Positions 8,783 to 39,389 of a stretch of DNA of 64,000 nt are shown here, piece after piece (the first letter of the stretch is position 1; every line of letters starts with the position of its first letter). A model generated the notes under the pieces. That model was not told the origin of the DNA, did no database searches, and was given only the letters and a program-made list of their open reading frames with translations. Source of the stretch: an uncultured Chlorobiaceae bacterium (GTDB taxonomy: Bacteria; Bacteroidota; Ignavibacteria; UBA10030; SZUA-254); the NCBI GenBank assembly GCA_964596065.1, contig CAZQSM010000004.1, positions 6,566 through 70,565 of the forward strand. Reading direction: 5' to 3'. The translations under genes and the position numbers were made by a program.

Positions 8783-10888
8783 TTATTTGATCAGAAGCGT
8801 CTTGATGAAATCCCGCCGCCCGTCGACCGTAACGCGGCAGTAGTAGACGCCGCTCGGCAGACCGGTCGGACTCCAGGGGATGCGGTGGAATCCGGGGCCG
8901 CGCTGTTCCCCGCCGATGCGGCCGACGCGGCTGCCGTGCACGTCGAAGAACTCGACCCCGACCCATCCCGGGGATGAGAGTTCCACGCCGATGACCGTCG
9001 TCGCGTTGAACGGATTGGGGAAATTCCGCGTGAGGCGGAACTCCCCAGGGTGGCGGCGCGCTTCCTCCACTCCGGTTCCGCCGTCGTTCCTGTAATAGAC
9101 CAGGCCGCCCTTCGATGTGCCGACGAGCAGGTCGTCGTCACCGTCGCCGTCGAGGTCGGTGAACGCGATCGCCGGTTCGTACGGCATTCCGGGCCCGAAC
9201 CGGTCGTTGTCCAGGGCATAGGGCGTGTCGCCCCCGCTCCCGGTATTGCTGTAGGCCACGATGAGGCTCCGGCCTCCGGGGGCCGTGTCGCCGGCCGCCG
9301 GGGCGACATACAGGTCCGCCCGGCCCGTCGCGGCGTTCCACCGGAACGCCGGCCTCGCGTTGCTCCCGAAGTCCCTCCCCAGGAAGGTTTCGCTGACGAG
9401 ATCCGGCACGAACGTCGAGGCGTCGCCCGAATTCCTGTAGAAGCTCAGCGTGCCGTTTCCCTTCCCGACGACCAGGTCGGGATCGCCGTCCCCGTCCACG
9501 TCGGCCGCGGCGGGGACGGCGTACTGGCCCGTGACGATCGTGTCGACCGGCTGGAAACCGCCCGGGCCCGCGTTCCGGTAGACGATCACCCTCCCGTCGA
9601 ACCTCCCGAGGAGCAGGTCCGGGTCTCCGTCGTCGTCGAGGTCGGCGAAGGCGGGGGCGTACGAGTAATTCCCCGTGATGCCCGCGAAGGCGGTGTCGAC
9701 GAGGTGGAACAGCGGCGAGAGCGGGCTCCCCTCGTTCCTGAAATGCCAGAGCTGTCCGTCGTTGTTGCCGATGACGAGGTCGAGGTCGAGGTCCCCGTCG
9801 AGATCGGCCAGCGCGGGCGCGGCATTCTGCCCGACGTCGAGCGTGGCGGCGAAGTCCCGGGTGACGAGCGTGTAGGCGGGCGCGCCGGGGGTTCCGTTGT
9901 TCTCATAATGCCAGAAGGAGTTCCGGGTCCTGGAGTTCAACACGCCGACGAACAGGTCCGGGTCTCCATCGGCGTCGATGTCGGCGAAGGAGGCCTGATT
10001 GAATCCGACGGTCGACAGCGAGCCGTCCGGCGGGAACACGTTGGACGCGCACTCCAGCGCGGGGTCCTGGGCGGTCCCGGCATTCCGGAGGTGGAAGAGG
10101 CTGTGTGAAAAGAGGTCGCCGTACACAAGGTCGGTGGTGCCGTTGCCGTCCAGGTCGCTCAGCGCGACCGCGCCGAGCCCGTGCGCCGGGTTCTTGTCCG
10201 CGGCCGGCAGCCCCGCGCCACCCTGCGTGCAGGTGTCGCCCGTGATGGTGATGTCGCTGAGCCGCGTCGAGACCAGGGCGTACGCCGGGACGCCCGCGAT
10301 GCCGGTGTTACGGTAATAGTTGAACGACCCGTCGGCGGAGTTGCCCGAGAGAAAATCGGGAAGCCCGTCGCCGGTCATGTCGGCGATACCGGGCAGACCA
10401 CCGAAACCGGCGAACAGCGGAGCGCCGGACGTGTCGCGAAGATCGTTCAACCGCACCGACCAGGAGGGATCGGCCGGAGTCGCGTCGTTCCTCCAGACGC
10501 GGACACCGCTCGACCCGTCGTCGGTGAGGAGGTCGACGATGCCGTCGGCGTCGAAATCGACGAATCGGAACCAGTAACTGAATGCCGCCCCGCGGAAACC
10601 CCCCTCCGGCTCGAGTGAGAACACGGGGGCGCCGGCGTCGCCGACGTTCCGGAAATAATACCGTTCGGCGTAAAAATCGGAATCGAGGATGAAGAGGTCG
10701 AGGTCGCCGTCGCCGTCGAGGTCCGCGAACTGCTGCATCGGGGCGTTCAATCCGCCGGAGAGGGGTTCACGGTAGGGGACCTGGTCGCGGAAAAAGGCGA
10801 TTCCCGCGAGGTCCCGGACGAAATTCTGCCCCGCGGCCGGGCCGGCGAACGGGAACAGGGCGAGCCCCGCGACCAGGGCGTTACGCAT
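8783..10888 (-). CDS. FG-GAP/VCBS-repeat (integrin-alpha-like beta-propeller) protein with T9SS C-terminal sorting domain
   Basis: Signal peptide. At least 9 repeats of the D-x-D/N-G-D-G-x-x-D-L Ca-binding FG-GAP signature. C-terminus LTRNFPNPFNATTVIGVEL...SGVYYCRVTVDGRRDFIKTLLIK matches the Por_Secre_tail consensus. Confidence 0.7.
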   Translation of the reverse strand: MRNALVAGLALFPFAGPAAGQNFVRDLAGIAFFRDQVPYREPLSGGLNAPMQQFADLDGDGDLDLFILDSDFYAERYYFRNVGDAGAPVFSLEPEGGFRGAAFSYWFRFVDFDADGIVDLLTDDGSSGVRVWRNDATPADPSWSVRLNDLRDTSGAPLFAGFGGLPGIADMTGDGLPDFLSGNSADGSFNYYRNTGIAGVPAYALVSTRLSDITITGDTCTQGGAGLPAADKNPAHGLGAVALSDLDGNGTTDLVYGDLFSHSLFHLRNAGTAQDPALECASNVFPPDGSLSTVGFNQASFADIDADGDPDLFVGVLNSRTRNSFWHYENNGTPGAPAYTLVTRDFAATLDVGQNAAPALADLDGDLDLDLVIGNNDGQLWHFRNEGSPLSPLFHLVDTAFAGITGNYSYAPAFADLDDDGDPDLLLGRFDGRVIVYRNAGPGGFQPVDTIVTGQYAVPAAADVDGDGDPDLVVGKGNGTLSFYRNSGDASTFVPDLVSETFLGRDFGSNARPAFRWNAATGRADLYVAPAAGDTAPGGRSLIVAYSNTGSGGDTPYALDNDRFGPGMPYEPAIAFTDLDGDGDDDLLVGTSKGGLVYYRNDGGTGVEEARRHPGEFRLTRNFPNPFNATTVIGVELSSPGWVGVEFFDVHGSRVGRIGGEQRGPGFHRIPWSPTGLPSGVYYCRVTVDGRRDFIKTLLIK

Positions 10889-12086
10889 GGAGCGCGTCGG
10901 ATCGTTCCACCGGTTCCGCGTGGCGATGGTGAAATCGTTCGATCGTCACGGCCGAGAGCGCCATCCGCGTGAGCTCCCGGAGGTCGAGCTTCGCCTCCTC
11001 GCCGAGGACCTGCGCGGGGTCCGCCCAGGTTCGGGGGCTCCGGGGTGCCAGGAACGAGCAGCAATCGTCGTACGGCTGGCTCGAAAAGTCGTGCGTGCCG
11101 ATCCGGCGCGACGTCGCGATCGTCTCCTCCTTGTCGGCGCCGGACAACGGTCGCAGGACCGCGATGGTCGCCGCCGCGTCGATCACGCGGATGTTTCTGA
11201 GCGTCTGGGACGCCACCTGCCCGACCGCCTCCCCGGTGACGAGGCCCTCGGCTTTTTCCCGGCCGGCGATCCTCTCGGCGATCCGGAGCATCATCCTCCG
11301 GTACAGGATGATCCGGAGCGAGGGTTCCGTCCTGAGCACGATCTCGTTCTGCACGGGGGCGAACGGGACAAGATAGAGTTTCGACCGGTACTGGTACGGT
11401 GTGAGCACCCTGACAACGTCCCGGACGAGCCCGACGGATTGTTCGCCGGTGTAGGGCATGCTGTGGAAATGGACGAACACGACGTTGCATCCCCTCTTCA
11501 TCATCTGCCAGCACGCGACCGGGGAGTCGAAGCCGGCAGAAAGCAGGCCGACCACCCGCCCGCTCACCCCGGCCGGCAGCCCGCCGGCCCCGGGGAGCCT
11601 CCGGGAATAGACATAGGCGGTCCCGTCGGCGATTTCGACCGACACCGTCACGTCGGGATCCGAGAGGTCGGCGCGGACGCCGTACGTGCCGCACAGGCGG
11701 GCCCCGATGCGCGCGTTGGTCTCCATCGACGTGAGCGGAAACCGCTTGTCGACGCGCCGGGTGTCGACGCGGAGGGTTGCGAACTTCAGGCCGGCGAGGG
11801 ACGCCTCCGAAGCCTCGCAGAGCGCCCCGACATCCTGCGCGACGCGAACGCCGGGGCAGATGTTCGCCAGTCCGAACACCCGCCCGAGCTCGCCGGCCAG
11901 CAGTCCGGCGTCCGCCGCGGATCCGGGGGTCAGTATGAATTTTCCATACCCTCCGCTGACGGAGCATTTCACGCCGGCCGCCGCGGCCGTCGCGCGGACG
12001 TTCCGCATGAGCGTCTGTTCGAAGTATTTCCGGTTTCCACCCTTGAGGACGATCTCGTGGTGGTGGAGAACGATGACGGGGTGCAT
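10881..12086 (-). CDS. thiI: tRNA 4-thiouridine(8) synthase ThiI (short form, no rhodanese domain)
   Basis: THUMP-like N-terminal region plus PP-loop SAGFDSPVA. 401 aa. Confidence 0.8.
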   Translation of the reverse strand: MHPVIVLHHHEIVLKGGNRKYFEQTLMRNVRATAAAAGVKCSVSGGYGKFILTPGSAADAGLLAGELGRVFGLANICPGVRVAQDVGALCEASEASLAGLKFATLRVDTRRVDKRFPLTSMETNARIGARLCGTYGVRADLSDPDVTVSVEIADGTAYVYSRRLPGAGGLPAGVSGRVVGLLSAGFDSPVACWQMMKRGCNVVFVHFHSMPYTGEQSVGLVRDVVRVLTPYQYRSKLYLVPFAPVQNEIVLRTEPSLRIILYRRMMLRIAERIAGREKAEGLVTGEAVGQVASQTLRNIRVIDAAATIAVLRPLSGADKEETIATSRRIGTHDFSSQPYDDCCSFLAPRSPRTWADPAQVLGEEAKLDLRELTRMALSAVTIERFHHRHAEPVERSDALHA

Positions 12087-12173
12087 TCGTAAAAGATATC
12101 ATTTACCGGAGGGAAAACCAAAATCAGGGACCGCCGGGGGGATGAAGTCCCGATCGCGGCGGCCGGCCGGGCG

Positions 12174-13478
12174 TCAATCCCCGGACGACCGCGACGCGCC
12201 GTGCGCGGTGAGCGCCCTCTGGAGGAGCGTCACGGGATGGATGACCTCCACCGCCGACCCCGCCTCGAGCAGGCCCCGTTGGATCTGGAGGTGGCATCCC
12301 GGGTTTCCCGTCACGACGGTCCCGGCCCCGCACCCGAGGATGTTCGCGATCTTCCGCCGGAGCAGTTCGTCGGCATCGTCGGGCCGGATGAGGTTGTAGA
12401 TGCCGGCGCTCCCGCAGCAGCGCGAGGCGTCGGGGAGTTCGACGAACCGCACGCCCGGGATCGTTTGGATAAGCGCCCGGGGTTGTTTCGACACGCCCTG
12501 GCCGTGGACCAGGTGGCACGCCTCGTGGTAGGTGACCGACGCCGCCACCGACCCGCCGGACGCACCGATTCCCCGGGCGTGGAGGAATTCCGACACGTCC
12601 GCGACCGTCGCCGAAAATCGGGCGGCCCGGTCCGCCATCGCCGGATCGTCCGCGAACAGGCGCCCGTACCCCTTCATGAAGGAGCCGCAGCCGGCGGCGT
12701 TCACGACGACCGCGTCCAACCCGTCAGGAAAGAGGCCGATCGTGTCCGCGGCGAGCTCTCGGGCCCGGGTGTCATCGCCGTTGTGGCCGTGGAGTGAACC
12801 GCAGCAGAATTGCCCCCGCGGAACGACCACGTCGAACCCGGAGCGCCTCAGGAGGTCCGCGGTACCGGAGTGGACCGAGGGGAACGTCTCATTCATCACG
12901 CAGCCCGTGAAGAGCCCCGTCCGGCCGGCCGGCGCGCCGCGGCCCCGCAGGAGGTCGGGCACCGCGGAAAGGTAGGAGCGGTCGGCGACGTCGGGGAGCG
13001 ACAGGACGATCCGGCGGATGGCGTCCGGGAAGACGTTCAGGATTCCGGAGCGTTCAACCGCCTCCCTCAGCCCCGACCGGCGGTAGCCCCGCATCAACCG
13101 GGCGAAGAGCCCGAAGCCGGCCGCAGACCCGAAAATGACCCGGAGGAGGACAAATTTCCTGAACCGGAGAGTGAACGGTTCGAGCTTCCGGTCGCGGACG
13201 ATGCCGCGCGCCATCTCCACGATTTCTCCGTACCGGACCCCCGCCGGGCAGGCTGGCTCGCACGCCCGGCAGTCGAGGCAGAAATTCATCTCGTCGGCGA
13301 ACGCCCGTCCCGGCACCAGCGAACCATCGAGCACCGACCGCACGAGGCGGATCCTCCCGCGGGGGGACGAGGCCTCGTCGAGCGTCATCTCGTAGGTGGG
13401 GCACGAGGGGAGGCAGAGACCGCAGTGGAGGCAGGTGTTGAGCACGGCGTCGATATGTTCCCGGCCCGGTCCCCTCAC
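12174..13478 (-). CDS. glcF: glycolate oxidase iron-sulfur subunit GlcF-like (Fe-S)-binding protein
   Basis: Two 4Fe-4S ferredoxin motifs (CLHCGLCLPSCP, CLDCRACEPACP). Two CCG cysteine-rich domains (QFCCGS, RCCGSAG). Confidence 0.75.
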   Translation of the reverse strand: MRGPGREHIDAVLNTCLHCGLCLPSCPTYEMTLDEASSPRGRIRLVRSVLDGSLVPGRAFADEMNFCLDCRACEPACPAGVRYGEIVEMARGIVRDRKLEPFTLRFRKFVLLRVIFGSAAGFGLFARLMRGYRRSGLREAVERSGILNVFPDAIRRIVLSLPDVADRSYLSAVPDLLRGRGAPAGRTGLFTGCVMNETFPSVHSGTADLLRRSGFDVVVPRGQFCCGSLHGHNGDDTRARELAADTIGLFPDGLDAVVVNAAGCGSFMKGYGRLFADDPAMADRAARFSATVADVSEFLHARGIGASGGSVAASVTYHEACHLVHGQGVSKQPRALIQTIPGVRFVELPDASRCCGSAGIYNLIRPDDADELLRRKIANILGCGAGTVVTGNPGCHLQIQRGLLEAGSAVEVIHPVTLLQRALTAHGASRSSGD

Positions 13479-13479: not shown

Positions 13480-14148
13480 TCAGGCGCGCCTCCCGAGCAG
13501 CGGCAGAAGCGCGGCCCCCGCGACGAAGCCCCCGATATGGGCCCACCACGCGACCCCTCCGGCGTCGGCCCCGATCTGCAGCGCGAGGAGCCCGCTCCCG
13601 ATCTGCATCAGGAACCAGAGCCCGAGAAAGACGAACGCGGGGAGTTCGATCAGCTGGAAAAAGACGAAGATCGGGATGAGCGTCAGTACCCTCGCGCGCG
13701 GGAAGAGGATGACGTAGGCCCCCAGCACCCCGGCGATGGCGCCGCTCGCCCCCACCATCGGGACGACCGAGGTCGGTTCGATGTACACCTGCGTCGCCGC
13801 GGCCGCGGCGCCCGTCATCAGGTAGAACAGGACGAATCGGCCGTGCCCGAACCGGTCCTCGATGTTGTCCCCGAAGACGTAGAGAAAGACCATGTTGCCC
13901 AGGAGGTGCATCCATCCCCCGTGGAGAAACATCGAGGTGAAGAACGAGAGGTAGGCGACCGGGTCGTCCGCGTAGGTGTCCAGCGCTTCGCTCACGCGAG
14001 AGGGAACCACGCCCAGCGACGCGAAGAGCCGTCCGAGATCCTCCCCGAGCGAAAGTTCGAAGAGAAAGACCGCGGCGTTCAGGCCGATCAGCGCATAGAC
14101 GACGTACGGGACCGAACGGGACGGGTTGGTGTCTCTCAGGGGGATCAT
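13480..14148 (-). CDS. rhomboid family intramembrane serine protease
   Basis: Six predicted TM segments. Catalytic GASGAIAG serine motif and His in AHIGGF. 222 aa. Confidence 0.75.
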   Translation of the reverse strand: MIPLRDTNPSRSVPYVVYALIGLNAAVFLFELSLGEDLGRLFASLGVVPSRVSEALDTYADDPVAYLSFFTSMFLHGGWMHLLGNMVFLYVFGDNIEDRFGHGRFVLFYLMTGAAAAATQVYIEPTSVVPMVGASGAIAGVLGAYVILFPRARVLTLIPIFVFFQLIELPAFVFLGLWFLMQIGSGLLALQIGADAGGVAWWAHIGGFVAGAALLPLLGRRA

Positions 14149-14157: not shown

Positions 14158-14814
14158 TCAGCGGTCGAGGAGCGGGGCGAACCACGCCATCATGTCGCCG
14201 AGGCTCTCCTCGTTGATCTGATGCCCCATGTCGTATTCGCGGTAGGTGACGACTGCGCCGTGAGATTCCAGCAGCTCCTTCGCCCGCCTGCTGTAGGCGA
14301 ACGGGATCACGGGGTCGTAAATGCCGTGGGCGACGAAGAAGGGCTTCCCCTTCACTCCCTCCCACCGGAACGTGAGCCCGGCATCCTCGGGCACGTACCC
14401 GCTGTTCGCGATCACGCCGGCGAGCAGTTCCGGCCGGGTGAGCGCGACCGCGAGGGACATGATCGATCCCATGCTGAATCCCCCGCAGTAGAGCCTGCCC
14501 GGATCGATGCCATGGCGTTCGACCGCTTCGGCGATGAACGCCAGCAGCGTGTCGTAACTCGACCGGAACATCGCGGCGTCCGGCCTGCCGATCTCCTCCA
14601 GGTCGTACCAGGTGTACCCGCCCCCGTTCGCGAACGGGTGCGGCGCCCGGGGCGCGATGATAAGCAGCCGGTCGTCGAAGTACTCGGAGAGGCCGAGCAG
14701 GTCGTCTTCGTCGGCGCCCCGGCCGTGGAGGAGGATCAGCGCCGGCGGTTTGCCGGGGCCGCTCCTCCTGGGCTGGAGGAATTTATAGACAAGGGAACGT
14801 TGTTCGCGGCTCAC
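14158..14814 (-). CDS. alpha/beta hydrolase (phospholipase/carboxylesterase family)
   Basis: LILLHGRGADEDDL and GFSMGS nucleophile elbow. C-terminal His (MGHQI). Confidence 0.7.
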   Translation of the reverse strand: MSREQRSLVYKFLQPRRSGPGKPPALILLHGRGADEDDLLGLSEYFDDRLLIIAPRAPHPFANGGGYTWYDLEEIGRPDAAMFRSSYDTLLAFIAEAVERHGIDPGRLYCGGFSMGSIMSLAVALTRPELLAGVIANSGYVPEDAGLTFRWEGVKGKPFFVAHGIYDPVIPFAYSRRAKELLESHGAVVTYREYDMGHQINEESLGDMMAWFAPLLDR

Positions 14815-14818: not shown

Positions 14819-16273
14819 TCATACCCACGCCACGTCTTCGAATTTCCGTATCTGCTCGCGGGAGCTCGGCATCCGCCCCTCGCACCGCGGTTCGCAGTCG
14901 AGGATCTTCCCGGGGTTGAGGATGAGATTCGGGTCGAGCGCCTCCTTCAGCTTTCGCATCATCATCATCGAGGGGGACCCCACCATTTTTTCAAGCAACG
15001 GTTTCTTGAACAGGCCGACGCCGTGCTCGCCGGTGATCGTCCCGCCGAGGGCGATCGCCGCCTCCTCGACCTCCATCACCGTCCTGTGCGCCCTCCGGAA
15101 TTCCCCGGCGTCGCGTTCGTCGGTGAGGTAGTTCGGGTGGAGGTTCCCGTCACCGGCGTGGCCGAAGGTGCCGATCCTGATGTCGTTCCTCCGCCCGATC
15201 TCCCCGATCTTCCGTACAAGGGCGGCCAGCTCGGTCCGCGGGACGGCCACGTCTTCCATGATGGTGGTCGGCCTGACGCGGGCGAGCGAGGTGAACGCCG
15301 ATCGGCGCGCGACCTTCAACCTGTCGGATTCGGCGGCCCCCGAGGCCACCGTCACCGACGAGGCTCCGCACTCCGTGAAAATGGCCGCGATCCTGGCGCT
15401 GTCCCGCCCGACCACCTCCGGATGGCCGTCAGTCTCCGCGAGCAGGAGGGCGCCCGCGTCCGTGGGCAGGCCGAGGCGGGCGTATTCCTCGACGCAGCGG
15501 ATCGTGGTGTTGTCGAGGAATTCGAGCATCGCCGGGAGGATCCGGGCCGACACCACCGCGGAGACGGCGGCCGCCGCCGATTCCATCCGCGGAAACGCCG
15601 CCAGGAGTGTCCGTGAAGCTTCCGGTTTGGGGAGGATCCGGAGGAGGATTTTGGTGATGATGCCGAGCGTGCCCTCGGACCCGACGAGCACGTCCCGCAG
15701 ATTGTAGCCGGCCACGTCCTTCGCCGACTTCCCCCCCGTCCAGAGGATTTCGCCCGTCGGGAGGACCACTTCGAGCCCCATCACGTAGTTCTTCGTGACC
15801 CCGTATTTGAGCCCCCGGAGCCCCCCTGAGTTCTCGGCGACGTTCCCCCCGATGGTGGAGATCGCCGCGCTCCCGGGATCGGGCGGATAGAGGAAGCCGA
15901 GGGCATCGACCTCACGCTGCAGCTTCGCGGTGATCACGCCGGGTTCGACGGTGACGGTCTGGTTGTCGGCGTCGATTTCGAGGATCCGGTTCCGGTGGGC
16001 CATCAGGACGACGACCGAGCCTTTCACCGGCAGGGCCCCCCCGCTCAGTCCTGTCCCGGAGCCGCGGGGAACGAGCGGCGTCCCGGTCTCGTTGGCGAGC
16101 CTGACGATGGAGGAGATTTCGGCCGGCGAGTTCGGCCTGACGACGCAGAGCGGGAGCTGCGGAGGCAGGGCGGTCGCGTCGTACGAATGGGCGACGAGCG
16201 CCTCCGGCGAATCGAACACGTTGTCGTGCCCGACGATTTCTCCCAGGCGGCGTGCGATCGTGCGCGAGGTCAT
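14819..16273 (-). CDS. glcD: FAD-linked oxidase, glycolate oxidase subunit GlcD-like
   Basis: FAD_binding_4 N-terminus (VVRPNSPAEISSIVRLANETGTPLVPRGSGTGLSGG) and FAD-oxidase C-terminal domain. 484 aa. Confidence 0.8.
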   Translation of the reverse strand: MTSRTIARRLGEIVGHDNVFDSPEALVAHSYDATALPPQLPLCVVRPNSPAEISSIVRLANETGTPLVPRGSGTGLSGGALPVKGSVVVLMAHRNRILEIDADNQTVTVEPGVITAKLQREVDALGFLYPPDPGSAAISTIGGNVAENSGGLRGLKYGVTKNYVMGLEVVLPTGEILWTGGKSAKDVAGYNLRDVLVGSEGTLGIITKILLRILPKPEASRTLLAAFPRMESAAAAVSAVVSARILPAMLEFLDNTTIRCVEEYARLGLPTDAGALLLAETDGHPEVVGRDSARIAAIFTECGASSVTVASGAAESDRLKVARRSAFTSLARVRPTTIMEDVAVPRTELAALVRKIGEIGRRNDIRIGTFGHAGDGNLHPNYLTDERDAGEFRRAHRTVMEVEEAAIALGGTITGEHGVGLFKKPLLEKMVGSPSMMMMRKLKEALDPNLILNPGKILDCEPRCEGRMPSSREQIRKFEDVAWV

Positions 16274-17454: not shown

Positions 17455-18606
17455 CTATTTGAGGACATTCAGCTTCTTCACGTTGACGTATGCGCCGTAG
17501 ACGATCCGGCAGAGATAGACGCCGCTCGGGAGGCCGGCGGCGTCAAAGGTCGCCTCGTACGATCCCGGGCTCAATTCGTCGTCGACGAGCAGCGCCGCTT
17601 CCCGTCCGATCAGATCGTAGACCCTGAGGGACACGCGCCCGGTCGTCGGAATCATGAACGGGATCACCGTTGAGGGATTGAACGGGTTCGGATAGTTCTG
17701 GGAAAGGGTGAACCGCTCCGGCGCGGTCGGCGAGGTCTGCCGCACGCCGGTGGCGGCACCGACGTTCCGGCTGAGCGTCAGCGTGGAGATCTCGGCGATG
17801 CCCCCGGCGTATCCCGTGTCCGCCTGTTCCGGTGAGACGACCGTCCCGTCCCCCGTGATGAAGGTGACCTGGACCGATTTATCGCGGCCCGCGAATGAAT
17901 TTCCGGCATAATATTCATACACCTCCGTTCCGGTGGTGCGCAGGGCCGGCAGGAGGATCGTCTTCCTCGCCCCGGGGCTCGCGACCGCCTCGGGCAGGAC
18001 GATCTCCCCCCAGCCGTCGCACTCCACGGTGGTCGTCGTGACGGTAAAATCGCCCCCCGCCGAATCGGAGTAGAGGGTATCGATGCCGGTCCTGGACGTT
18101 CCGATCGTCAGCGGGAGGGGCATCACCAGGCGCATCGGGAGGTACCGTTCCACGATGATCGTGTCGATGAACGGAAGCCAGAACTGGCGGGAGTACCGTC
18201 CGAGCAGGTACAATCCGTCAGCCCGGAGGAGTGAGTAGGTAACCTGCGAAATTTCCGCGCCACTGTCGGGTTGCCAGACGTAGGGCAGACAGAGGTTCGC
18301 GTTCGGAAATTCCTCCGCGCCGGGCTGTCCGGCGGGCGCCCGGTAGGTCATCGACGCCGAATCCCTGAAATCCGGCGTGGGAAATCCGCTGAGATCGAAC
18401 GTCTGCTCCGACGGGGCGGCCTGGCCGAGATCGACCATCGGGTAGGGGAAATAGGTGGCATGGTACGACATCCGCTCGCCGTTGAGATAGATGCTCACGT
18501 CGGTCTGGTTGATGGTGATCTGGGCGTCCGCGGGTGACACGGGCAGGAGCGACGCGGCGAGGATCAGGACGACCGGTACCAATGTTCTCGTCGGCATTTC
18601 CTTCAA
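17455..18606 (-). CDS. secreted protein with T9SS C-terminal sorting domain
   Basis: Signal peptide MKEMPTRTLVPVVLILAASLLPVSPADAQ. C-terminus LSQNYPNPFNPSTVIPFMIP...SGVYLCRIVYGAYVNVKKLNVLK matches the Por_Secre_tail consensus. Confidence 0.65.
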   Translation of the reverse strand: MKEMPTRTLVPVVLILAASLLPVSPADAQITINQTDVSIYLNGERMSYHATYFPYPMVDLGQAAPSEQTFDLSGFPTPDFRDSASMTYRAPAGQPGAEEFPNANLCLPYVWQPDSGAEISQVTYSLLRADGLYLLGRYSRQFWLPFIDTIIVERYLPMRLVMPLPLTIGTSRTGIDTLYSDSAGGDFTVTTTTVECDGWGEIVLPEAVASPGARKTILLPALRTTGTEVYEYYAGNSFAGRDKSVQVTFITGDGTVVSPEQADTGYAGGIAEISTLTLSRNVGAATGVRQTSPTAPERFTLSQNYPNPFNPSTVIPFMIPTTGRVSLRVYDLIGREAALLVDDELSPGSYEATFDAAGLPSGVYLCRIVYGAYVNVKKLNVLK

Positions 18607-31631: not shown

Positions 31632-33650
31632 ATGAGCGAAGAGAAGCAGGGGTCGAGGAACAGGAAGAACACACGGCCGAGGAAACCGCGGATGCCCAGG
31701 AACCAGTTCCGGAACGACGATGACTTCAACTGGGGAAAGGTCCTCAAGGTCGTCCTCAGCTGGTCGGCGATCATCTTCGGCGTGTTCGTCCTCGTCACCC
31801 TCTTCCGGACGCCGGAAGTCAACCAGGTGGAGATCGAGTATACCCGCTACCAGGAATTCCTCAAGGCCGATAAAATCACCGCGGCGACGATCAAAAAATC
31901 GGAACTGAACAACTACGAGTTTCATGGCACGCTCCGCGGGGCGGAATCGATCGAGGTCCCCGGCGGCAAGCGCGTGAACGTCGAACGGTTCTTCGTGCTG
32001 CTCCCCTTCATCGACAACTCCGTCGTCCAGGAATGGACCGACCGGGGAATCCGGTTCACCATCACCAGGGAGGACAACACCTGGATGAACGCGCTCCTCG
32101 GCGCGCTCCCCTGGGTCCTGCTCCTGGTCATCTGGCTGATCGTGATGCGGCGCATGCAGGGCGTCGGCACCAAGGGCATTTTCTCCTTCGGGAAGAGCCG
32201 CGCGAAAATGATGGCCGAGGGGACGACCAAGGTCACCTTCCAGGATGTCGCGGGAGCGGACGAGGCAAAATATGAGCTGCAGGAGATCATCGAATTCCTG
32301 AAGGAACCGTCGAAGTTCCAGCGGCTCGGCGGCAAGATCCCCCGCGGGGTCCTCCTCCTGGGCCCTCCCGGCACCGGGAAGACCCTCCTGGCGAGGGCCG
32401 TCGCCGGCGAGGCGGGCGTACCGTTTTTCTCCATCTCGGGCGCGGAATTCGTGGAGATGTTCGTCGGCGTCGGCGCGAGCCGGGTCCGCGACCTCTTCGA
32501 GACGGGAAAGAAAAGCGCGCCGGCCATCATCTTCATCGATGAAATCGACGCGGTCGGACGGCATCGCGGGGCCGGGCTCGGCGGGGGCCACGACGAACGC
32601 GAACAGACGCTCAACCAGCTCCTCGTCGAGATGGACGGGTTCGAACAGAACAGCGGCGTGATCATCATCGCGGCGACCAACCGCCCCGACGTCCTCGACC
32701 CGGCGCTGCTGCGCCCCGGCCGCTTCGACCGCCAGGTCGTCGTCGACCGCCCCGACGTGCGGGGCAGGGAGGGAATCCTCAAGGTGCACACGAAGAACAT
32801 CCCCCTCGAGGAGAGCGTCAAGCTCGACATCCTCGCGAAGGGGACCCCGGGTCTGGCCGGAGCGGACCTCGCGAACCTGGTGAACGAGGCGGCCCTCCTC
32901 GCCGCGCGGCAGAACTGCCGCGAAGTCGGGATGCGGCACTTCGAGGAGGCCAAGGACAAGGTGATGATGGGGATGGAACGAAAGAGCCTTATCATTTCCG
33001 ACAAGGAAAAGAAGGTGACCGCCTACCACGAATCGGGGCACGTGCTGGTCGCGAAAATGATCCCGGAAGCCGACCCGGTCCACAAGGTCACGATCATTCC
33101 CCGCGGGCGCGCCCTCGGCGTGACGACGTACCTCCCGATCGACGAGAAACACACCTACTCCAAGGAGTACCTCGAGGCGATGATCGCGTACGCCCTCGGC
33201 GGCCGCGCGGCGGAAAAGCTGATCTACAACCAGTTCACCACCGGCGCGGGGAACGACATCGAACGCGCCACGAAGCTGGCGCGGAAAATGGTCTGCGAGT
33301 GGGGCATGAGCGAGAGGATCGGTCCGATGGCGTACGGCGCGAAGGAGGAGGAACTCTTCCTCGGCCGTGAAATCACGAAGACGACGAATTATTCCGAAAA
33401 CACCGCGATCCTCATCGACGAGGAGGTCAAGAAAATCATGACCGATGGCATGGCCAGGGCGGAATCGCTCCTGCAGACCAACATCGACGCCCTCCACAAC
33501 CTCGCGGCCGCCCTCCTCGAACGGGAAATCCTCGACGGCGAGGAGATCGACGCGATCCTTCGCGGAGAGTCACTGCCGCCCGTCGTGGAACGGGGCAACG
33601 GCAGCAGCAAGGCCGCCGGGGGAGCGGCAAGGCCGGCCCCAGGTGCCTGA
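31632..33650 (+). CDS. ftsH: ATP-dependent zinc metalloprotease FtsH
   Basis: Two N-terminal TM segments. Walker A GPPGTGKT, Walker [17 protein letters not shown] zinc site. 672 aa. Confidence 0.9.
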
Positions 33651-33717
33651 CGCCTCACGGGGCGCGGCGCCCCGGCACGAGCCTCCCCCCCCCGCTGCCG
33701 TCGATTTCCGGAGCGAA

Positions 33718-34332
33718 CTGCTCCGGAAGGGGATCCACCTCTCCTCGATCGTGATCCCCATTTTTTATTTTTATACGCCGCGGCACACCGCCCTCGTGGT
33801 CGCCGCGGCGCTCACTGCCGTCGCGCTGGCCCTCGACGTCGGCCGCCACTATTACCCGCCACTCTTCCGCTTCTACGACCTCAAGTTCGGCGCGATGCTG
33901 AGGAGCCACGAGAGCGACAGCAGCGTCAAGAGGCTCAACGGCGGCACCTACGTGCTCATCGCCGCCACGCTTTCGATTTTCCTCTTTCCGAAGCTGATCG
34001 CGATCTCCGCGTTCCTGGTCCTGATCGTGTCCGACCTCTGCGCCGCGCTGGTGGGGCGGAAATTCGGCAGGCGGCGGTTCCTCGGCAAATCGGTGGAAGG
34101 GAGCCTCGCCTTCCTCGTCACGGCCCTCCTGATCGTCGCCGCGACCCCGAAGATCGCCTACCTCCCGGCCGAATACGCGGTGGGGGCCGCCGCGGCGCTC
34201 GCGGCCACCATCGTGGAAGCGTCTCCGACCGGGATTGACGACAACCTCTCGATCCCCCTCACGTTCGGGGGCGCGCTCTGGGCCGGCTACGCGTTGGCGC
34301 TCCCCCACCTCGATCTGTATAAATTCGGCTGA
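33718..34332 (+). CDS. CTP_transf_1-family small membrane protein (dolichol/phytol/polyprenol kinase-like)
   Basis: Multi-TM. LIVSDLCAALVGRKFGRRRFLGKSVEGSLAFL resembles the polyprenol/phytol kinase signature. No ATG start exists; CTG 33718 or GTG 33751 is possible. Confidence 0.45.
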   Translation: MLRKGIHLSSIVIPIFYFYTPRHTALVVAAALTAVALALDVGRHYYPPLFRFYDLKFGAMLRSHESDSSVKRLNGGTYVLIAATLSIFLFPKLIAISAFLVLIVSDLCAALVGRKFGRRRFLGKSVEGSLAFLVTALLIVAATPKIAYLPAEYAVGAAAALAATIVEASPTGIDDNLSIPLTFGGALWAGYALALPHLDLYKFG

Positions 34333-34337: not shown

Positions 34338-34766
34338 ATGACGGAAGAGACGGGCATGGGACGACAACCGGGGTCGCGAAACCGCCAGATGCTGGTGGTG
34401 GGAGACCGCGTCCTGATCATTCCAGACACCGACCGGGACAGGTCCGAGCACGGGCTCTACCTCCCGCCCGGCGTGAAGGAGAAGGAAAAGGTTCAGAGCG
34501 GCTATATCGTCAAGGTCGGCCCGGGGTACCCGGTCCCGAACCCGAACTACCTCGACCAGGAATCGTGGTCCGCGGCGCCCCGCGAACCGGTGAAGTACCT
34601 TCCGCTGCAGGCCGAGGAGGGCGATTACGCCATTTTCCTCAGAGACCAGGCGATCGAGATCGAATACGACGGGACAAAATACCTGATCGTGTCGCAGGCG
34701 GGGGTGTTGATGCTGATCAGGGCGAGGCCGATGGCGGACCTCGGCGGGGAAGAGCGGGAAGGCTAA
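34338..34766 (+). CDS. GroES (Cpn10)-like co-chaperonin fold protein, orphan
   Basis: LVVGDRVLIIPDTD...GLYLP...GYIVKVGPG...GDYAIFLRDQAIEIEYDGTKYLIVSQAGVLMLI aligns with GroES blocks, with a ~25-aa insertion. No groEL nearby. Confidence 0.5.
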   Translation: MTEETGMGRQPGSRNRQMLVVGDRVLIIPDTDRDRSEHGLYLPPGVKEKEKVQSGYIVKVGPGYPVPNPNYLDQESWSAAPREPVKYLPLQAEEGDYAIFLRDQAIEIEYDGTKYLIVSQAGVLMLIRARPMADLGGEEREG

Positions 34767-35512
34767 CGGGCGCTGAAGCGTTCGAGGAACGCCACTTCCC
34801 CCGGCGAGAGACTCCCGGTCCCGCCGGTGTCGAGCTTCATCATGATCCTCCGGTACTCCTCCCTGTTGACCTCGTGCATCCCGTCGGTGGCGATCGCCCG
34901 CCACCGCTGCAGTGCCACGGGATCGACCACCGGACGCCCGGCTGCCGGCATCGTGACCCTGACCTCCCGCCCCGGCGCCGCCGACCGGATATAGAGATAC
35001 CCCCCCAGGAACCCTCCGAGATGGGCGAAATGCGCGATGCCGTCCCCGCCCCCGCCGGCGCCGCCGAACACCGAGAGGGCCGCCATTCCCGCGACCAGCC
35101 AGCGGGCCTCGACGGGCAGGATCCCCCAGATGTAGATCTGTGAGCGGGGCCAGAACCAGGTGAATCCGATCAGAACGCCGTACACCGCGGCCGACGCCCC
35201 GACGATCGCAGCGTCGAACGAAAAGAGGAACGAGAGCGCCGCGCCGGAGAGCCCGCTGACGAAGTAGAGCCAGAGGAAGCGCCGCTCACCCAGTTCCGCC
35301 TCGAGCCGAGGTCCGAAGAAATAGAGCCCCAGCATGTTGAACAGGATGTGCCCGAGTCCCGCGTGGAGGAACATGTAGGTGACTGCGGTCCAGGGCCGCA
35401 GAAGCGCGTAGGCGGGGACGAACATCAGCTCGCGGTCGATCCCGGGGACCATCGCCGTGACCAGGAACATCACCGCGTTCGCGGCGATGATCCGCATGAC
35501 CCAGGGCGTCAT
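34763..35512 (-). CDS. rhomboid family intramembrane serine protease (second copy)
   Basis: TM helices. GASAAVYG serine motif and FAHLGGFLGG His motif. 4-nt overlaps on both sides. Confidence 0.7.
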   Translation of the reverse strand: MTPWVMRIIAANAVMFLVTAMVPGIDRELMFVPAYALLRPWTAVTYMFLHAGLGHILFNMLGLYFFGPRLEAELGERRFLWLYFVSGLSGAALSFLFSFDAAIVGASAAVYGVLIGFTWFWPRSQIYIWGILPVEARWLVAGMAALSVFGGAGGGGDGIAHFAHLGGFLGGYLYIRSAAPGREVRVTMPAAGRPVVDPVALQRWRAIATDGMHEVNREEYRRIMMKLDTGGTGSLSPGEVAFLERFSAR

Positions 35513-37527
35513 CGGCCCGTCCCGGTCTCTCCGACGGCCTCGAGGATGATCTCGGCGATGTCCTTCACCGCGACCCGTTCCGAGGCCTCCTTCTCCTTGA
35601 CGCCGTCGGTCATCATGGTCATGCAGAAGGGACAGGCCGTGCCGATCACGTCGGGCGCGAGCCGGAGCGCCTCCTCGGTCCGTTCGACGTTGACCCTCTT
35701 CCCCGTGCTCTCCTCCATGAACATTCTCGCTCCCCCCGCCCCGCAGCAGAACCCCCGGTCGCGGTTCCGGGGCATCTCCGACAATTCGACCCCGGGGACC
35801 GACGTGAGGACGTTCCTCGGTTCATCGTAGACCTGGTTGTACCGGCCCAGGTAGCAGGAATCGTGGTAGGTGATCTTCGCCCGCTGTTCGCCCGTCAGGC
35901 GGAGCTTTCCCGATTCGATCAGGCCGAGGAGGAACCCGCTGTGGTGGACCACTTCGTAGCGCCCGCCCAGCTGGGGGTACTCGTTCAGGAGGATGTTGAG
36001 GCAGTGCGGGCAGGTCGTGACGATCTTCGTCACGCCGTGGCCGTTCAGGACCCGGACGTTTTCCGCCATCAACGTCTGCGCGAGGTAGTCGTTCCCGGCC
36101 CTGCGCGCCGGGTCGCCGGTGCATTTCTCCTCCGGCCCGAGGATGGCGAAATCGACGCCCGCGATCTTCATGAGCGTGGCGAAGGCCTTCGTCACCTTCG
36201 TGTACCGGGCGTCGTACGCCCCGGCGCAGCCCACCCAGAAGAGGATCCGGTCAGCGCCGGCCGGCGCCGCCGCCGACATCAGCGGGATGTCGAGTCCCTC
36301 CGCCCAGTCGCTCCTCGACGAATGGCTGAAGCCCCAGGGGGTGAAATTGCGTTCGAGGTTCTGGAACGTCGCCTGCATCTCCTTCGGGAAGCGGGATTCG
36401 TTCAGGACGAGATGGCGGCGCATGTCGACGATGGCGTCGACGTGCTCGATCTGCACCGGGCACTCCTGGACGCAGGCCATGCAGGTCGTGCACGCCCAGA
36501 GTTCATCCTCGGTGATGTACCCGTCGACGAGCTGCCGGTCGGCCTCCGGGGCCGCGGCGGCGGCGCCGGCCACGAGCCGCGGGGCCTTCTCCACGAGACG
36601 CTGGCGAATGTCGACGATGATCTTCTTCGGTGAGAGCGGCTTTCCCGTGTTCGCGGCGGGGCACACGGCGGTGCAGCGCCCGCATTCCGTGCAGGTATAC
36701 CCGTCGAGGAGCTGCTTCCAGGTCAGGTCTTCGACGTCGGCCGCTCCGTACCTCGGCAGCGTCTCGTCCTGGAGGTCCAGGTTTTTCAGCGTCCCGCGGC
36801 GGCCGAGCTTCGCGAAGTAGACGTTCGGCACGGAAGAGATGACGTGCAGGTGTTTCGAGTAGGGAAGGTAGTTCAGGAACCCGAGGACGAGCGCCACGTG
36901 AAACCACCAGAAGGCGGTGAACCAGGCCGCGGCGTCGCCGCCCTCACCCCCGTCGAACAGCGAGGCCGCCGCGGTCGAAACGAAGCGCGCCTCGTTCGCC
37001 ATCCGCGCGCCGCCCGCGATGTTCGAGCCGTTCTGGCCGAACATCGAGACGATGATCAGCAGGATCCAGAGGAGGATCAGCGTCGCGTCGAACCGGGAAT
37101 GCCCACCCACGTCCAGGCGCGCGGGCGGCCTGATGTATCGCCTGAAGAGGGCGAAGATCGTCGAGAGCGCGACGAGGAGCCCGATCAGGTCCTGGAGGAA
37201 GGCCAGCGGAGGGTAGAGCGGGCCGAGGAAACCGAACGTGAACCCCGGCGCGATCCCCTCCCCGAACGTCTCGAGGATGGCGCTCAGCAGGATGACGAAC
37301 CCCCAGAAGATGAAGAAGTGGAGGATCCCGGCGAGCGGTTCCCGGAGGAGCTTCGTCTGTCCGAAGGCCACCGTCAGCACGTTCCGGAGCCGTTCGACCG
37401 GACGGTCCGTCCGCCCCTCCTTTCTGCCGATGCGGAGGTACCCCGCGAGCCGGCGCACGTTCAGGGCGAACAAGAGCAGCGAACCCGCCAGGACTGCGAT
37501 GAAGATGAGTGATTCGGTTGCGATCAT
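35509..37527 (-). CDS. membrane-anchored (Fe-S)-binding oxidoreductase, HdrD/DsrK/GlpC-like with NarI-like N-terminal TM domain
   Basis: About 230-aa N-terminal multi-TM domain. Two 4Fe-4S motifs (CTECGRCTAVCP, CTTCMACVQECP). Two CCG domains (GFCCGAGG, TCPHC...CPFC). Confidence 0.7.
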   Translation of the reverse strand: MIATESLIFIAVLAGSLLLFALNVRRLAGYLRIGRKEGRTDRPVERLRNVLTVAFGQTKLLREPLAGILHFFIFWGFVILLSAILETFGEGIAPGFTFGFLGPLYPPLAFLQDLIGLLVALSTIFALFRRYIRPPARLDVGGHSRFDATLILLWILLIIVSMFGQNGSNIAGGARMANEARFVSTAAASLFDGGEGGDAAAWFTAFWWFHVALVLGFLNYLPYSKHLHVISSVPNVYFAKLGRRGTLKNLDLQDETLPRYGAADVEDLTWKQLLDGYTCTECGRCTAVCPAANTGKPLSPKKIIVDIRQRLVEKAPRLVAGAAAAAPEADRQLVDGYITEDELWACTTCMACVQECPVQIEHVDAIVDMRRHLVLNESRFPKEMQATFQNLERNFTPWGFSHSSRSDWAEGLDIPLMSAAAPAGADRILFWVGCAGAYDARYTKVTKAFATLMKIAGVDFAILGPEEKCTGDPARRAGNDYLAQTLMAENVRVLNGHGVTKIVTTCPHCLNILLNEYPQLGGRYEVVHHSGFLLGLIESGKLRLTGEQRAKITYHDSCYLGRYNQVYDEPRNVLTSVPGVELSEMPRNRDRGFCCGAGGARMFMEESTGKRVNVERTEEALRLAPDVIGTACPFCMTMMTDGVKEKEASERVAVKDIAEIILEAVGETGTGR

Positions 37528-37541: not shown

Positions 37542-38447
37542 TTAGTCGTGAACGATCATCTCGCCGCGCAGCACGGTGACCGCGGGCCCTCCGATCCGCA
37601 CGGAGTTCGCCTTCCCGTCCTGCCCCGTGACGTCGACGAAGACCCGGCCCCTCCGGGCGATCGCGTCCCCCTGTTCGCCCTGGAAGGAGCAGACCCCGTC
37701 AGCGGGGGTGAGGAGACCGTGATCGTGGAGGATCACTCCCAGCGGGCCGTGCGAGGAGCCCGTGACGGGATCCTCGTTGATGCCGCAGTTGGGCGCGAAA
37801 AACCTCGAATGGACCTTCGAATCGCGGTCGATCGTCTCGAGCGTGTAGAGGCAGAGCCCCGACAGGTTCCGGGCCGTGAGGAACGCGGAGATGTTGAGAA
37901 AGTTTGGCTTCAGCGTGAAGAGCGTGTGCAGCCTCCTGATCATGACGTACAGGTACGTCTCCTTCATGATCGGCACCCGGTTGTCGAATTCCACCGACGG
38001 GACCGCCAGGAGCCGGACGAGGTCGACCTTCAGGTGCGGCACCTTCTCGAACGCCGGCACGCGCAGGCCGAGGTAGACGATCGTCGACGATTCCCCCCGC
38101 TCGACCTTCACCGGCAGGTTGCCGTCTGCGGTCTCGAGGCTGAACGCGTAGGTTCCGGGGGCGGTCATCCCGAGGCGTCGCTCCTCCGCGAGCACGTGGA
38201 ACGCGGCCACCGTCGCGTGGCCGCAGAGCGGGACCTCGACCGTCGGCGTGAACCACCGGACCCTGACGTCGGCGCCAGGCTTTGTCGGAGGGAGGACGAA
38301 CGCCGTTTCCGAGAGGTTCATTTCGCGCGCGATCGACTGCATCTGGGCCTGGCTCAGCGCCGCCCCTTCGAGCACGACCCCGGCCGGGTTCCCGGTATGG
38401 GGAACGGACGTGAACGCGTCAACCTGCCTGATGTCGACCGATATCAT
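37542..38447 (-). CDS. PhzF-family (phenazine-biosynthesis-like) isomerase
   Basis: ATG 38447 gives MISVDIRQVDAFTSVPHTGNPAGVVL; SETAFVL motif. Diaminopimelate-epimerase-like fold. 302 aa. Confidence 0.7.
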   Translation of the reverse strand: MISVDIRQVDAFTSVPHTGNPAGVVLEGAALSQAQMQSIAREMNLSETAFVLPPTKPGADVRVRWFTPTVEVPLCGHATVAAFHVLAEERRLGMTAPGTYAFSLETADGNLPVKVERGESSTIVYLGLRVPAFEKVPHLKVDLVRLLAVPSVEFDNRVPIMKETYLYVMIRRLHTLFTLKPNFLNISAFLTARNLSGLCLYTLETIDRDSKVHSRFFAPNCGINEDPVTGSSHGPLGVILHDHGLLTPADGVCSFQGEQGDAIARRGRVFVDVTGQDGKANSVRIGGPAVTVLRGEMIVHD

Positions 38448-39277
38448 GTGGCACCTGCGGTGGAAAGAGAAAATGACCTGATGGTCGTCCGGTTCCTGAC
38501 GTACACGATCCGGTCGTCCGCCCGGAAAAAGGTCGCGCCCGCCGGCAGCGAGAGCCCGTCGCACACCAGGTCGCGGAAGAGTATTTCCCCCGTCGGGGCG
38601 TCGAGGACGAACAGGTGTTCCCGGAGCGTCCGCGCCTGACCGGCCCCCTGGACCGTCTCGTACCAGTTACTGATTTCCGCGCCGCCCACGAGCATCGCGC
38701 CGCCCGGTTCGAGCAGTGCTCCTGCCGGAAACGCGCCCGCGACCGTGGGGTGCAGTTCGGGGACGAGGTCCGCGTTCCCGACGTCGATCCCCCATGTCGT
38801 CGCGTGGTCCGGACGGAACGCGGGGAGCTCCCCGGCGGGTACCTCACGGACCACTCCGCCGGTGAGCAGGTCGATCTCGTAATACGCCCTGCGATCGAAC
38901 AGCTCCTTCGACGCGAAGACGGAGCCGCCGCTGGCGAATCCGAATGCGAGGTCGGGGTTCTCCCAGATCGGATCGCCGCTCGAAGCATCGATCGCCACGA
39001 TCTTCCCGTGGTCCGGCATGCTGGGGACCGGATAGTCGTGGAGGAAGAGGATCCCCCCGTGTACGGCTTCGATCCCGGTCCACCAGGGCTGCGAAACCCC
39101 TTTCCCCTGCCAGTGGACGCGGCCGTCGTCGAGCGAGACGCAGAAGAACGTGACGCGTTTGTTCCCGAGGTCCCGCGCTTCGCCGATGATCCTCCGGTCC
39201 TCGAGTGGGACGATCTTCCATACGTTGGCCCGGGCGTCGTAGTCCCAGAGGCCGCGGACGCCCCTCCCGCTACCCAT
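38444..39277 (-). CDS. hypothetical protein (possible beta-propeller)
   Basis: ORF with GC3 bias, 4-nt overlap with the PhzF gene. No motif recognized. Confidence 0.4.
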   Translation of the reverse strand: MGSGRGVRGLWDYDARANVWKIVPLEDRRIIGEARDLGNKRVTFFCVSLDDGRVHWQGKGVSQPWWTGIEAVHGGILFLHDYPVPSMPDHGKIVAIDASSGDPIWENPDLAFGFASGGSVFASKELFDRRAYYEIDLLTGGVVREVPAGELPAFRPDHATTWGIDVGNADLVPELHPTVAGAFPAGALLEPGGAMLVGGAEISNWYETVQGAGQARTLREHLFVLDAPTGEILFRDLVCDGLSLPAGATFFRADDRIVYVRNRTTIRSFSLSTAGAT

Positions 39278-39389
39278 ACCGTGCCTGCTGATCGATGTGG
39301 ATGATGATGTCGGTGATAAGATACACATCGAGGGGGGAAATATCAATTGTTTCCTACGCGTAAATAAATAATTGCGAAGCCGGCGCGGG

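Follow-up and report, generated by a model that had tools for sequence, protein, structure and literature searches.

Rhomboid protease genes beside CCG-domain oxidoreductase genes at two loci of an uncultured Chlorobiaceae bacterium: a pairing probably explained by lineage history

A 64,000-nucleotide stretch of DNA from an uncultured Chlorobiaceae bacterium (assembly GCA_964596065.1, contig CAZQSM010000004.1), referred to here at its full length as the window, contains two genes for rhomboid proteases, and each of them lies directly beside a gene for an iron-sulfur oxidoreductase with CCG cysteine-rich domains. The original prediction, made from the letters of the window, had read this double occurrence as a recurring module with a functional link between the two families. 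We analyzed both loci together with the corresponding loci of relatives. We found no general rhomboid-oxidoreductase module, and on the present evidence the pairing is a matter of lineage history.

Gene content of the two loci and the two rhomboid proteins

The window has a G+C content of 65.5%, and long spurious antisense open reading frames (ORFs) are abundant in it. The genes of both loci are all encoded on the minus strand and are listed below from 5' to 3', first for locus 1 and then for locus 2 (TM, transmembrane; FAD, flavin adenine dinucleotide).

14819..16273, minus strand: GlcD-like FAD-linked 2-hydroxyacid oxidase/dehydrogenase subunit, 484 aa (FAD_binding_4 and FAD-oxidase_C domains)
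14158..14814, minus strand: carboxylesterase-like protein of the Abhydrolase_2 family, 218 aa, flanked by the glcD-like gene and rhomboid 1 (PF02230, 89.5 bits)
13480..14148, minus strand: rhomboid 1, 222 aa (PF01694, 124.6 bits)
12174..13478, minus strand: GlcF-like iron-sulfur subunit, 434 aa (two 4Fe-4S motifs and two CCG domains by Pfam)
38444..39346, minus strand: DUF4905 protein, at most 300 aa (PF16248, 59.9 bits); the true start is perhaps internal, e.g., near 39277
37542..38447, minus strand: PhzF-family isomerase, 301 aa (PF02567, 219 bits; TIGR00654, 209.6 bits against a cut-off of 76.2)
35509..37527, minus strand: EtfD-like membrane iron-sulfur oxidoreductase, 672 aa (two CCG domains and Fer4; match to PDB 9ojn_A)
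34763..35512, minus strand: rhomboid 2, 249 aa (PF01694, 110 bits)

Scans of all six frames with hidden Markov models (HMMs) found exactly two rhomboid genes and two CCG genes in the 64 kb, each rhomboid gene adjoining one CCG gene, and the ORFs with their PF01694 and PF02754 matches confirm the adjacency at both loci. The Pfam HMMs also detect the two ferredoxin-type 4Fe-4S motifs and the two CCG domains predicted for each partner; the CCG domains were not misidentified, scoring 123 bits over two stretches of the 672-aa protein and 105 bits over two stretches of the GlcF-like protein. The two rhomboids share 31% identity and the two CCG proteins 23%, in agreement with the view that both pairs are distinct paralogues. 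The gene order is opposite at the two loci: the rhomboid gene precedes the GlcF-like gene at locus 1 and follows the CCG gene at locus 2.

The junctions are tight throughout. At locus 2, DUF4905 and PhzF share a 4-nt ATGA overlap, 14 nt separate PhzF from the EtfD-like gene, and the stop of the latter forms another 4-nt ATGA overlap with the start of rhomboid 2. At locus 1 the gaps are 4 nt (GlcD/esterase), 9 nt (esterase/rhomboid 1), and 1 nt (rhomboid 1/GlcF), the last consisting of the TGA stop of rhomboid 1, a single nucleotide, and a GTG that is the earliest start possible in the GlcF-like ORF. An overlap of 2-4 nt had been expected at both loci; it is present at locus 2 (4 nt), and locus 1 has the 1-nt gap instead. 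The genes named upstream at locus 2 had been a PhzF-family isomerase, which stands with its start corrected to 38447, and an uncharacterized protein, which belongs to DUF4905. Promoter and terminator scans of both loci gave counts equal to the shuffled expectation, the sigma-70 consensus being doubtful for this phylum, and the terminator scan found no internal terminators at either locus. Across the window, searches for Rfam families and tRNAs yielded only two tRNAs, both distant from loci 1 and 2, so that no hidden RNA feature is present at either.

Both rhomboids are of the MEROPS S54 type and pass the PF01694 gathering score of 22.6 bits by a wide margin, and both keep the HxxxN motif of TM helix 2, the GxSx serine of TM helix 4, and the histidine of TM helix 6. 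Residues H76/H81/N85, G133-A-S135-G, and H204 of rhomboid 1 are invariant across 26 homologues, as are H50/H55/N59, S107 (GASA), and H164 of rhomboid 2 across 21. By hydropathy, rhomboid 1 is a minimal six-TM protein. The AlphaFold2 model of rhomboid 2 (mean confidence, pLDDT, 84) consists of six TM helices and a C-terminal cytoplasmic extension of about 70 aa with three helices, and its top 31 PDB matches are GlpG structures with target-normalized TM-scores of up to 0.75, the value given for E. coli GlpG being 0.73. Neither protein reaches a specialized NCBIfam family: rhomboid 2 is below the equivalog cut-offs of GlpG (TIGR04239, 32.8 vs 250; NF008155, 31.4 vs 335) and rhombosortase (TIGR03902, 28.9 vs 84), and rhomboid 1 scores 25.8 vs 84 for rhombosortase and has no GlpG match at E<=1e-5. 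Judged by their residues and topology, both are most likely ordinary, catalytically competent six-TM serine proteases.

The EtfD-like protein and the slot occupied by rhomboid 2

EtfD connects the electron-transfer flavoprotein (ETF) and beta-oxidation with menaquinone (PMC8593149), and its haem ligands His78/His241 and an unusual linear [3Fe-4S] cluster are known from a cryo-electron microscopy structure (PMC13083937); that paper does not mention a rhomboid. In a phmmer search, the 672-aa protein of locus 2 aligned with Mycobacterium smegmatis EtfD (PDB 9ojn_A) over residues 13-665 with E=7.4e-150, in two stretches covering query residues 13-320 and 329-665. It has five hydrophobic segments corresponding to TM helices, and H70 and H228 align with the haem-b ligands His78/His241. 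Two cubane [4Fe-4S] motifs are formed by C279/282/285/289 and C346/349/352/356, and C434/469/506/509 align with EtfD C503/538/581/584, which hold the linear [3Fe-4S] cluster D1. The two histidines, both cubane motifs, and the four D1 cysteines are invariant in 30 homologues. The protein had been labeled HdrD/DsrK-like; this holds at the level of the superfamily and fails as a specific assignment, as shown by the DsrK equivalog NF045796 (53.8 bits against a cut-off of 400) and the full-length homology to EtfD. We therefore annotate it as a putative ETF:menaquinone oxidoreductase.

The likeness to mycobacterial EtfD (Rv0338c), whose relatives include Bacillus subtilis FadF, Pseudomonas aeruginosa DgcB, and the EMO of syntrophs, extends to the five TM helices, haem ligands, cubane motifs, D1 cysteines, and two CCG domains. 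In contrast, the window protein has 672 aa and not 1042 aa, the long disordered C-terminal region is missing, and the gene has no adjoining etfAB or acyl-CoA dehydrogenase gene but DUF4905 and PhzF as conserved neighbours. No ETF or acyl-CoA dehydrogenase gene was found among the 20 window ORFs scanned against Pfam.

For the distribution of the locus 2 pairing, EtfD orthologues were collected with a 30-sequence alignment as the query and one genome per species, which gave 80 loci (39-80% identity; labeled L001 and so on) from Ignavibacteria, Kapabacteria, Chlorobiota, Bacteroidia, Actinomycetota, and others. Neighbours were checked with the rhomboid HMM at E<=10 in all six-frame ORFs, and the 72 loci with at least 1 kb of downstream sequence were considered evaluable. 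An adjacent rhomboid gene was present at only one of these 72, in the closest relative (L001, 80% identity); L016 has one rhomboid gene 3.6 kb from EtfD on the opposite strand. Direct look-up revealed the pairing, with the 4-nt EtfD/rhomboid overlap of the window, in the close relatives L172 and L173, and the data suggest that the pairing is present in four more close relatives. All relatives with the pairing have an EtfD-like identity of at least 72%.

Relatives with 57-71% EtfD identity share the synteny of the region, in which RadA, Ham1, DUF4905, PhzF, and EtfD converge on genes for a Cpn10-like protein, a membrane protein, FtsH, and TilS, and they have no rhomboid gene after etfD. The far side of the slot is formed in the window by the following genes.

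34338..34766, plus strand: Cpn10/GroES-like protein, 142 aa (PF00166, 40.8 bits), bounding the far side of the variable slot
33700-34332, plus strand: membrane protein, 210 aa, without a Pfam match
31632-33650: ftsH, upstream of the 210-aa membrane protein gene in the convergent operon

The stop codons of rhomboid 2 and the convergent Cpn10-like gene share letters (CTAA, 34763-34766). What follows etfD differs from relative to relative: the slot is empty and the convergent Cpn10-like gene comes directly after etfD in L091 (70%), a PMT_2 glycosyltransferase gene occupies it in L174 (71%), an IS200-like Y1 transposase and an 801-aa TIR-NACHT/NB-ARC-TPR gene (10164-13230) fill it in L015 (69%), and the FtsH operon follows etfD directly in L003 (57%). 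Rhomboid-2 orthologues with 55-60% identity have unrelated neighbours and no CCG gene. Because the slot content differs among syntenic relatives and the neighbours of the orthologues are unrelated, rhomboid 2 is a lineage-specific occupant of a variable slot, and a recent local insertion specific to this clade best explains the coupling of etfD with rhomboid 2. The adjacency is too narrowly spread and therefore provides no argument for a dedicated EtfD-rhomboid pair.

Several observations on these loci stand apart from the question of the rhomboid. The TIR-NACHT/NB-ARC-TPR protein of L015 has the appearance of a defence protein. Directly upstream of rhomboid-2 orthologues, a gene for a 696-aa protein without a Pfam match was present in two of three places (L085, 2905-4995; L088, 2059-4149); it is the sole recurrent neighbour of this rhomboid subfamily, and its two contigs are unrelated. 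The ftsH, 210-aa membrane protein, and stand-alone Cpn10-like genes are part of a conserved operon (TilS, FtsH, membrane protein, Cpn10-like).

The upstream side of etfD is conserved more widely among Ignavibacteria-like relatives. PhzF and EtfD stand in this order in L001, L002, L003, L015, L017, L020, L083, L091, and L173, and the full DUF4905-PhzF-EtfD trio in the window and in L001, L002, L003, L015, L017, L091, and L173; PhzF is missing from L016, which has DUF4905 and EtfD, and a YjbQ-family gene takes its place in L174. The companions of the putative ETF:quinone oxidoreductase are a PhzF isomerase and a beta-propeller-like DUF4905 protein. At 11 of the 80 loci (L004, L007, L008, L012, L014, L027, L041, L044, L058, L066, and L077), the EtfD orthologue has an acyl-CoA dehydrogenase gene no more than 8 kb away, which is consistent with a beta-oxidation/ETF role of the family outside mycobacteria. 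The orthologues of Bacteroidia (Flavobacterium, Pedobacter, Sphingobacterium, Chitinophagales, and others) are divided between two neighbouring ORFs, with the TM and 4Fe-4S portion in an ORF of about 440 aa and the CCG portion in another of about 265 aa (L027, L029, L030, L033-L035, L037-L042, L044, L046-L048, L050-L055, L059-L070, L074, and L076-L079), and at 28 loci the split EtfD is followed by an unannotated protein with a length of about 170-210 aa.

Rhomboid 1 in the glcD-glcF string

Locus 1 resembles Escherichia coli GlcDEF in that a GlcD-type FAD subunit and a GlcF-type subunit with two 4Fe-4S motifs and two CCG domains are encoded in one operon. It differs in having no glcE; the genes for the esterase and the rhomboid are intercalated between glcD and glcF instead. 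The GlcF-like protein is below the NCBIfam GlcF cut-off (NF008434, 241.6 vs 333), and the GlcD-like protein is below the cut-offs of TIGR00387 (497.1 vs 567.9) and NF008408 (350.5 vs 897). Given these scores and the missing glcE, the substrate may be glycolate, D-lactate, or another 2-hydroxy acid.

By hydropathy, GlcF, GlcD, and the esterase have no TM segment, so direct cleavage of the locus 1 products by a rhomboid is unlikely. GlcF was considered as a TM substrate and rejected, as its sole hydrophobic stretch (residues 110-128) is charged and amphipathic in all seven orthologues. The EtfD-like protein offers five TM helices and the GlcF-like protein only this non-conserved amphipathic stretch, which weakens the idea of the CCG partner as a direct rhomboid substrate in the case of GlcF.

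The order glcD, alpha/beta hydrolase, rhomboid, glcF (the cluster) was found in seven other loci (L081, L082, L083, L089, L090, L096, and L099), with rhomboid identities of 55-74%, GlcF identities of 45-69%, G+C contents of 40-66%, and differing flanks. In L081, L082, L083, L089, and L090 (rhomboid identity 62-74%), an Abhydrolase_2 esterase, the rhomboid, and GlcF follow a glcD-like gene. The other two emerged from a metagenome scan for more distant rhomboid-1-like genes, which comprised 80 loci, 53 of them evaluable (at least 1 kb downstream): a CCG neighbour was present only in L096 and L099 (2/53). Here the hydrolase is a signal-peptide-bearing dienelactone hydrolase (DLH) without detectable similarity to the Abhydrolase_2 esterase, and rhomboid and glcF overlap or are separated by 6 nt. 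The names of sequence-cluster members offered a single taxonomic label for these two contigs, an unreliable 'Proteobacteria' tag on a 1.2-kb contig. The rhomboid-glcF junction is at most 6 nt in six of the eight cluster-bearing loci, including the window. No conserved neighbour is general to rhomboid-1-like genes; the largest real family occurs at only 5 of the 80 loci.

All cluster-bearing GlcF proteins fall into one small subclade (16 of 152 taxa) of a tree that included 150 family representatives and E. coli GlcF. In a neighbour-joining tree of the rhomboids, the rhomboid of L092, which lacks the cluster, groups with cluster-bearing rhomboids in 78% of bootstraps. The Abhydrolase_2 and DLH groups of cluster-bearing rhomboids were never sisters (0/200 bootstraps). 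The string may be either one old operon with in situ replacements and losses or the same order built twice.

Foreign genes were observed right after glcD in three loci: DNA methyltransferases and an Mrr-type nuclease in L090 (1601-4147), a methyltransferase-like ORF in L099 (2872-4134), and a gene with a Nuc_deoxyrib_tr-like domain in L089 (3152-4069). These inserted cargo genes have no detectable similarity to one another, and the hydrolase-rhomboid-glcF part is unbroken in all three loci despite them.

The hydrolase deserves attention of its own, because an alpha/beta hydrolase lies immediately upstream of the rhomboid in 8/8 cluster loci (Abhydrolase_2 in six and DLH in two), and insertions occur only between glcD and the hydrolase and never within hydrolase-rhomboid-glcF. 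The hydrolase and the rhomboid, both of them serine hydrolases, could form one pathway with GlcDF, for example, in the turnover of membrane-bound esters whose 2-hydroxy-acid product is oxidized by GlcDF, in which case the CCG domains would be incidental and locus 2 unrelated. We consider this explanation quite improbable: no chemistry connects the families, the hydrolase looks like a cytosolic protein in one group and like a secreted one in the other, the remaining 78 rhomboid-1-like loci have no hydrolase beside the rhomboid, and the sample of eight loci represents perhaps two or three independent lineages.

Alternatively, rhomboid 1 might serve as a non-proteolytic membrane dock for GlcD and GlcF, replacing GlcE or a membrane anchor; it is the only TM subunit of a cluster without glcE, and its gene sits between the enzyme subunit genes, tightly coupled to glcF. 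Such a role is highly improbable. The invariant catalytic Ser/His and HxxxN are those of an active protease, a protein of 222 aa with six TM helices has almost no cytoplasmic surface, and the subfamily is widespread without GlcF. In addition, E. coli GlcDEF is membrane-associated without a rhomboid subunit, and none is encoded in its operon.

Two proteins predicted to be cargo of the type IX secretion system (T9SS) flank the locus 1 region: a 701-aa FG-GAP/VCBS-repeat protein (8783-10888, minus strand), whose orthologues in L082 and L090 match Por_Secre_tail weakly, and a 383-aa protein (17455-18606, minus strand), which itself matches Por_Secre_tail. Their presence is consistent with a Bacteroidota-type organism.

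Origin and possible role of the pairings

The two pairings of the window are one older and one recent event that were co-inherited in one narrow clade, and they are not two samples of one module. Uniqueness to this genome would have counted against the original prediction; the pairings are not unique, but they do not constitute a general recurring module (1/72 EtfD loci and 2/53 rhomboid-1-like loci). The syntenic relatives at 57-71% identity without a rhomboid and the rhomboid-2 orthologues at 55-60% without a CCG gene also speak against such a module.

We favour, with a probability of roughly 0.55, the explanation that two ordinary active rhomboids were placed in two respiratory-dehydrogenase transcription units by two separate events. 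Rhomboid 1 would belong to an old, lineage-conserved operon of glcD-like, hydrolase, rhomboid, and glcF-like genes, associated with one GlcF subfamily in Ignavibacteria-like bacteria. Rhomboid 2 would have been inserted in the ancestor of a narrow clade at the variable slot at the 3' end of the DUF4905-phzF-etfD operon and would then have become translationally coupled to etfD via the ATGA overlap. Each string is probably co-transcribed, in which case rhomboid dosage would track that of membrane-associated, quinone-reducing iron-sulfur dehydrogenases. The rhomboids may act as general membrane-protein quality-control or processing proteases, like GlpG and YqgP, and not as dedicated CCG partners; EtfD, a polytopic haem and iron-sulfur protein, would be a conceivable client, and GlcF, having no TM helix, would not. 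Any functional effect would act via co-expression.

Known rhomboid clients allow a comparison with both loci. GlpG and Rhom7 clear orphan HybA, FdoH, and FdnH, which are 4Fe-4S subunits of respiratory complexes (PMC7232013), and YqgP cleaves polytopic MgtE and serves as an FtsH adaptor (PMC7231995). The rhomboid-2 model has the fold of the GlpG and Rhom7 of Shigella and E. coli, which act on 4Fe-4S subunits anchored in the membrane as parts of quinone-linked respiratory enzymes. Each client of GlpG is a type I protein that crosses the membrane once, through a TM helix containing a proline, whereas GlcF lacks such a helix altogether and EtfD is a polytopic protein; the GlpG clients are also encoded away from glpG, whereas the CCG genes here adjoin the rhomboid genes. 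The position of E. coli glpG in glpEGR, beside the respiratory dehydrogenase gene glpD, is only a loose parallel. YqgP (GluP) of B. subtilis is a bacterial rhomboid able to target a multi-pass protein and is tuned by extra cytoplasmic domains. Rhomboid 2 likewise has an extra cytoplasmic domain, a conserved C-terminal helical one, but the N-terminal cytosolic domain and the C-terminal TPR domain of YqgP are missing. The ftsH gene lies 1.1 kb from rhomboid 2, but in the convergent operon and at the same place in relatives with or without the rhomboid. Our literature search found nothing linking rhomboids with GlcF, glycolate oxidase, or Ignavibacteria, and a 2025 review on rhomboids does not discuss operons or gene neighbourhoods.

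The fusion of the two loci in other genomes bears on their relationship. In L083 (GCA_016214905.1) and L089 (GCA_013824245.1), 1-6966, both loci are joined on one strand in the order PhzF, EtfD-like, glcD-like, (an extra gene in L089), esterase, rhomboid, and glcF-like. This arrangement suggests that the EtfD-like protein and GlcDF are functionally tied, e.g., through a common electron route to menaquinone.

Several points weigh against the placement of two ordinary rhomboids by separate events. By a rough estimate, which assumes few rhomboid genes and about ten CCG genes and is inferred rather than computed, two such adjacencies would arise in one genome by chance with a probability below 1e-4. 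The two groups of cluster-bearing rhomboids that were never sisters could reflect two separate assemblies of the arrangement, in which case selection for it would gain support. The rhomboid-glcF junction survived insertions elsewhere in the operon and a change of hydrolase family between the groups, and the fusion in L083 and L089 is a third event joining EtfD to a transcription unit with a rhomboid. Finally, 4Fe-4S respiratory subunits are among the known rhomboid clients (PMC7232013).

In this lineage the rhomboids might instead be parts of a dedicated quality-control or maturation module, acting as specific partners of membrane-associated CCG-type iron-sulfur quinone reductases (EtfD and GlcDF) and removing unassembled or cofactor-less copies, much as GlpG/Rhom7 do with orphan HybA, FdoH, and FdnH or as YqgP licenses the degradation of MgtE by FtsH. 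Each of the two rhomboids in the window adjoins one of the two CCG genes, through an overlap or with 1 nt in between. The rhomboid-glcF junction persists down to 45% GlcF identity and over the whole range of G+C contents, the clade with the EtfD-rhomboid pairing retains the ATGA overlap, and etfD is joined to the string in the two fused loci; the non-sister rhomboid groups are compatible with repeated recruitment. Precedents exist in the 4Fe-4S respiratory substrates (PMC7232013) and in the polytopic client and the cooperation with FtsH (PMC7231995). Nevertheless, a dedicated module seems unlikely: 71 of the 72 evaluable EtfD orthologues and 51 of the 53 evaluable rhomboid-1-like loci lack the adjacency, etfD has no rhomboid beside it in close syntenic relatives, and L092 has the rhomboid without the cluster. 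GlcF, GlcD, and the Abhydrolase_2 (group A) esterase offer no TM segment to cut, and the wide occurrence of both rhomboid subfamilies beside varying neighbours points to a general role.

A related proposal is that rhomboids were recruited more than once in the Ignavibacteria-like lineage as co-translated quality-control or maturation partners of membrane-associated CCG-type iron-sulfur quinone reductases. The cases would be rhomboid 1, recruited to GlcDF, rhomboid 2, recruited to EtfD, and the fused etfD-glcD...rhomboid-glcF string of L083 and L089. In a variant of it, the glcD-hydrolase-rhomboid-glcF order was assembled twice independently. We regard these cases taken together as distinctly unlikely to reflect such recruitment. 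If it were true, bacterial rhomboids would gain their first enzyme-client pairs with genetic linkage. The number of origins of the glcD...glcF arrangement, one or two, is the thread that could raise the interest of the finding.

Under the favoured reading of two separate placements, the components are ordinary members of known families and the gains are modest: the re-annotation of the EtfD-like protein, the DUF4905-PhzF-EtfD trio, and a lineage-specific glcD-hydrolase-rhomboid-glcF operon. To our knowledge, physiological substrates of bacterial rhomboids are known in only a handful of species. A rhomboid gene wedged between the subunit genes of a respiratory 2-hydroxy-acid dehydrogenase, in genomes of 40-66% G+C, is a cheap and testable lead in this respect, and rhomboid 2, coupled to the gene of an EtfD-type putative ETF:menaquinone oxidoreductase, is a second one. 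If a functional link exists, the policing of iron-sulfur respiratory subunits by rhomboids would extend from enterobacteria to a distant phylum, with candidate clients at hand.

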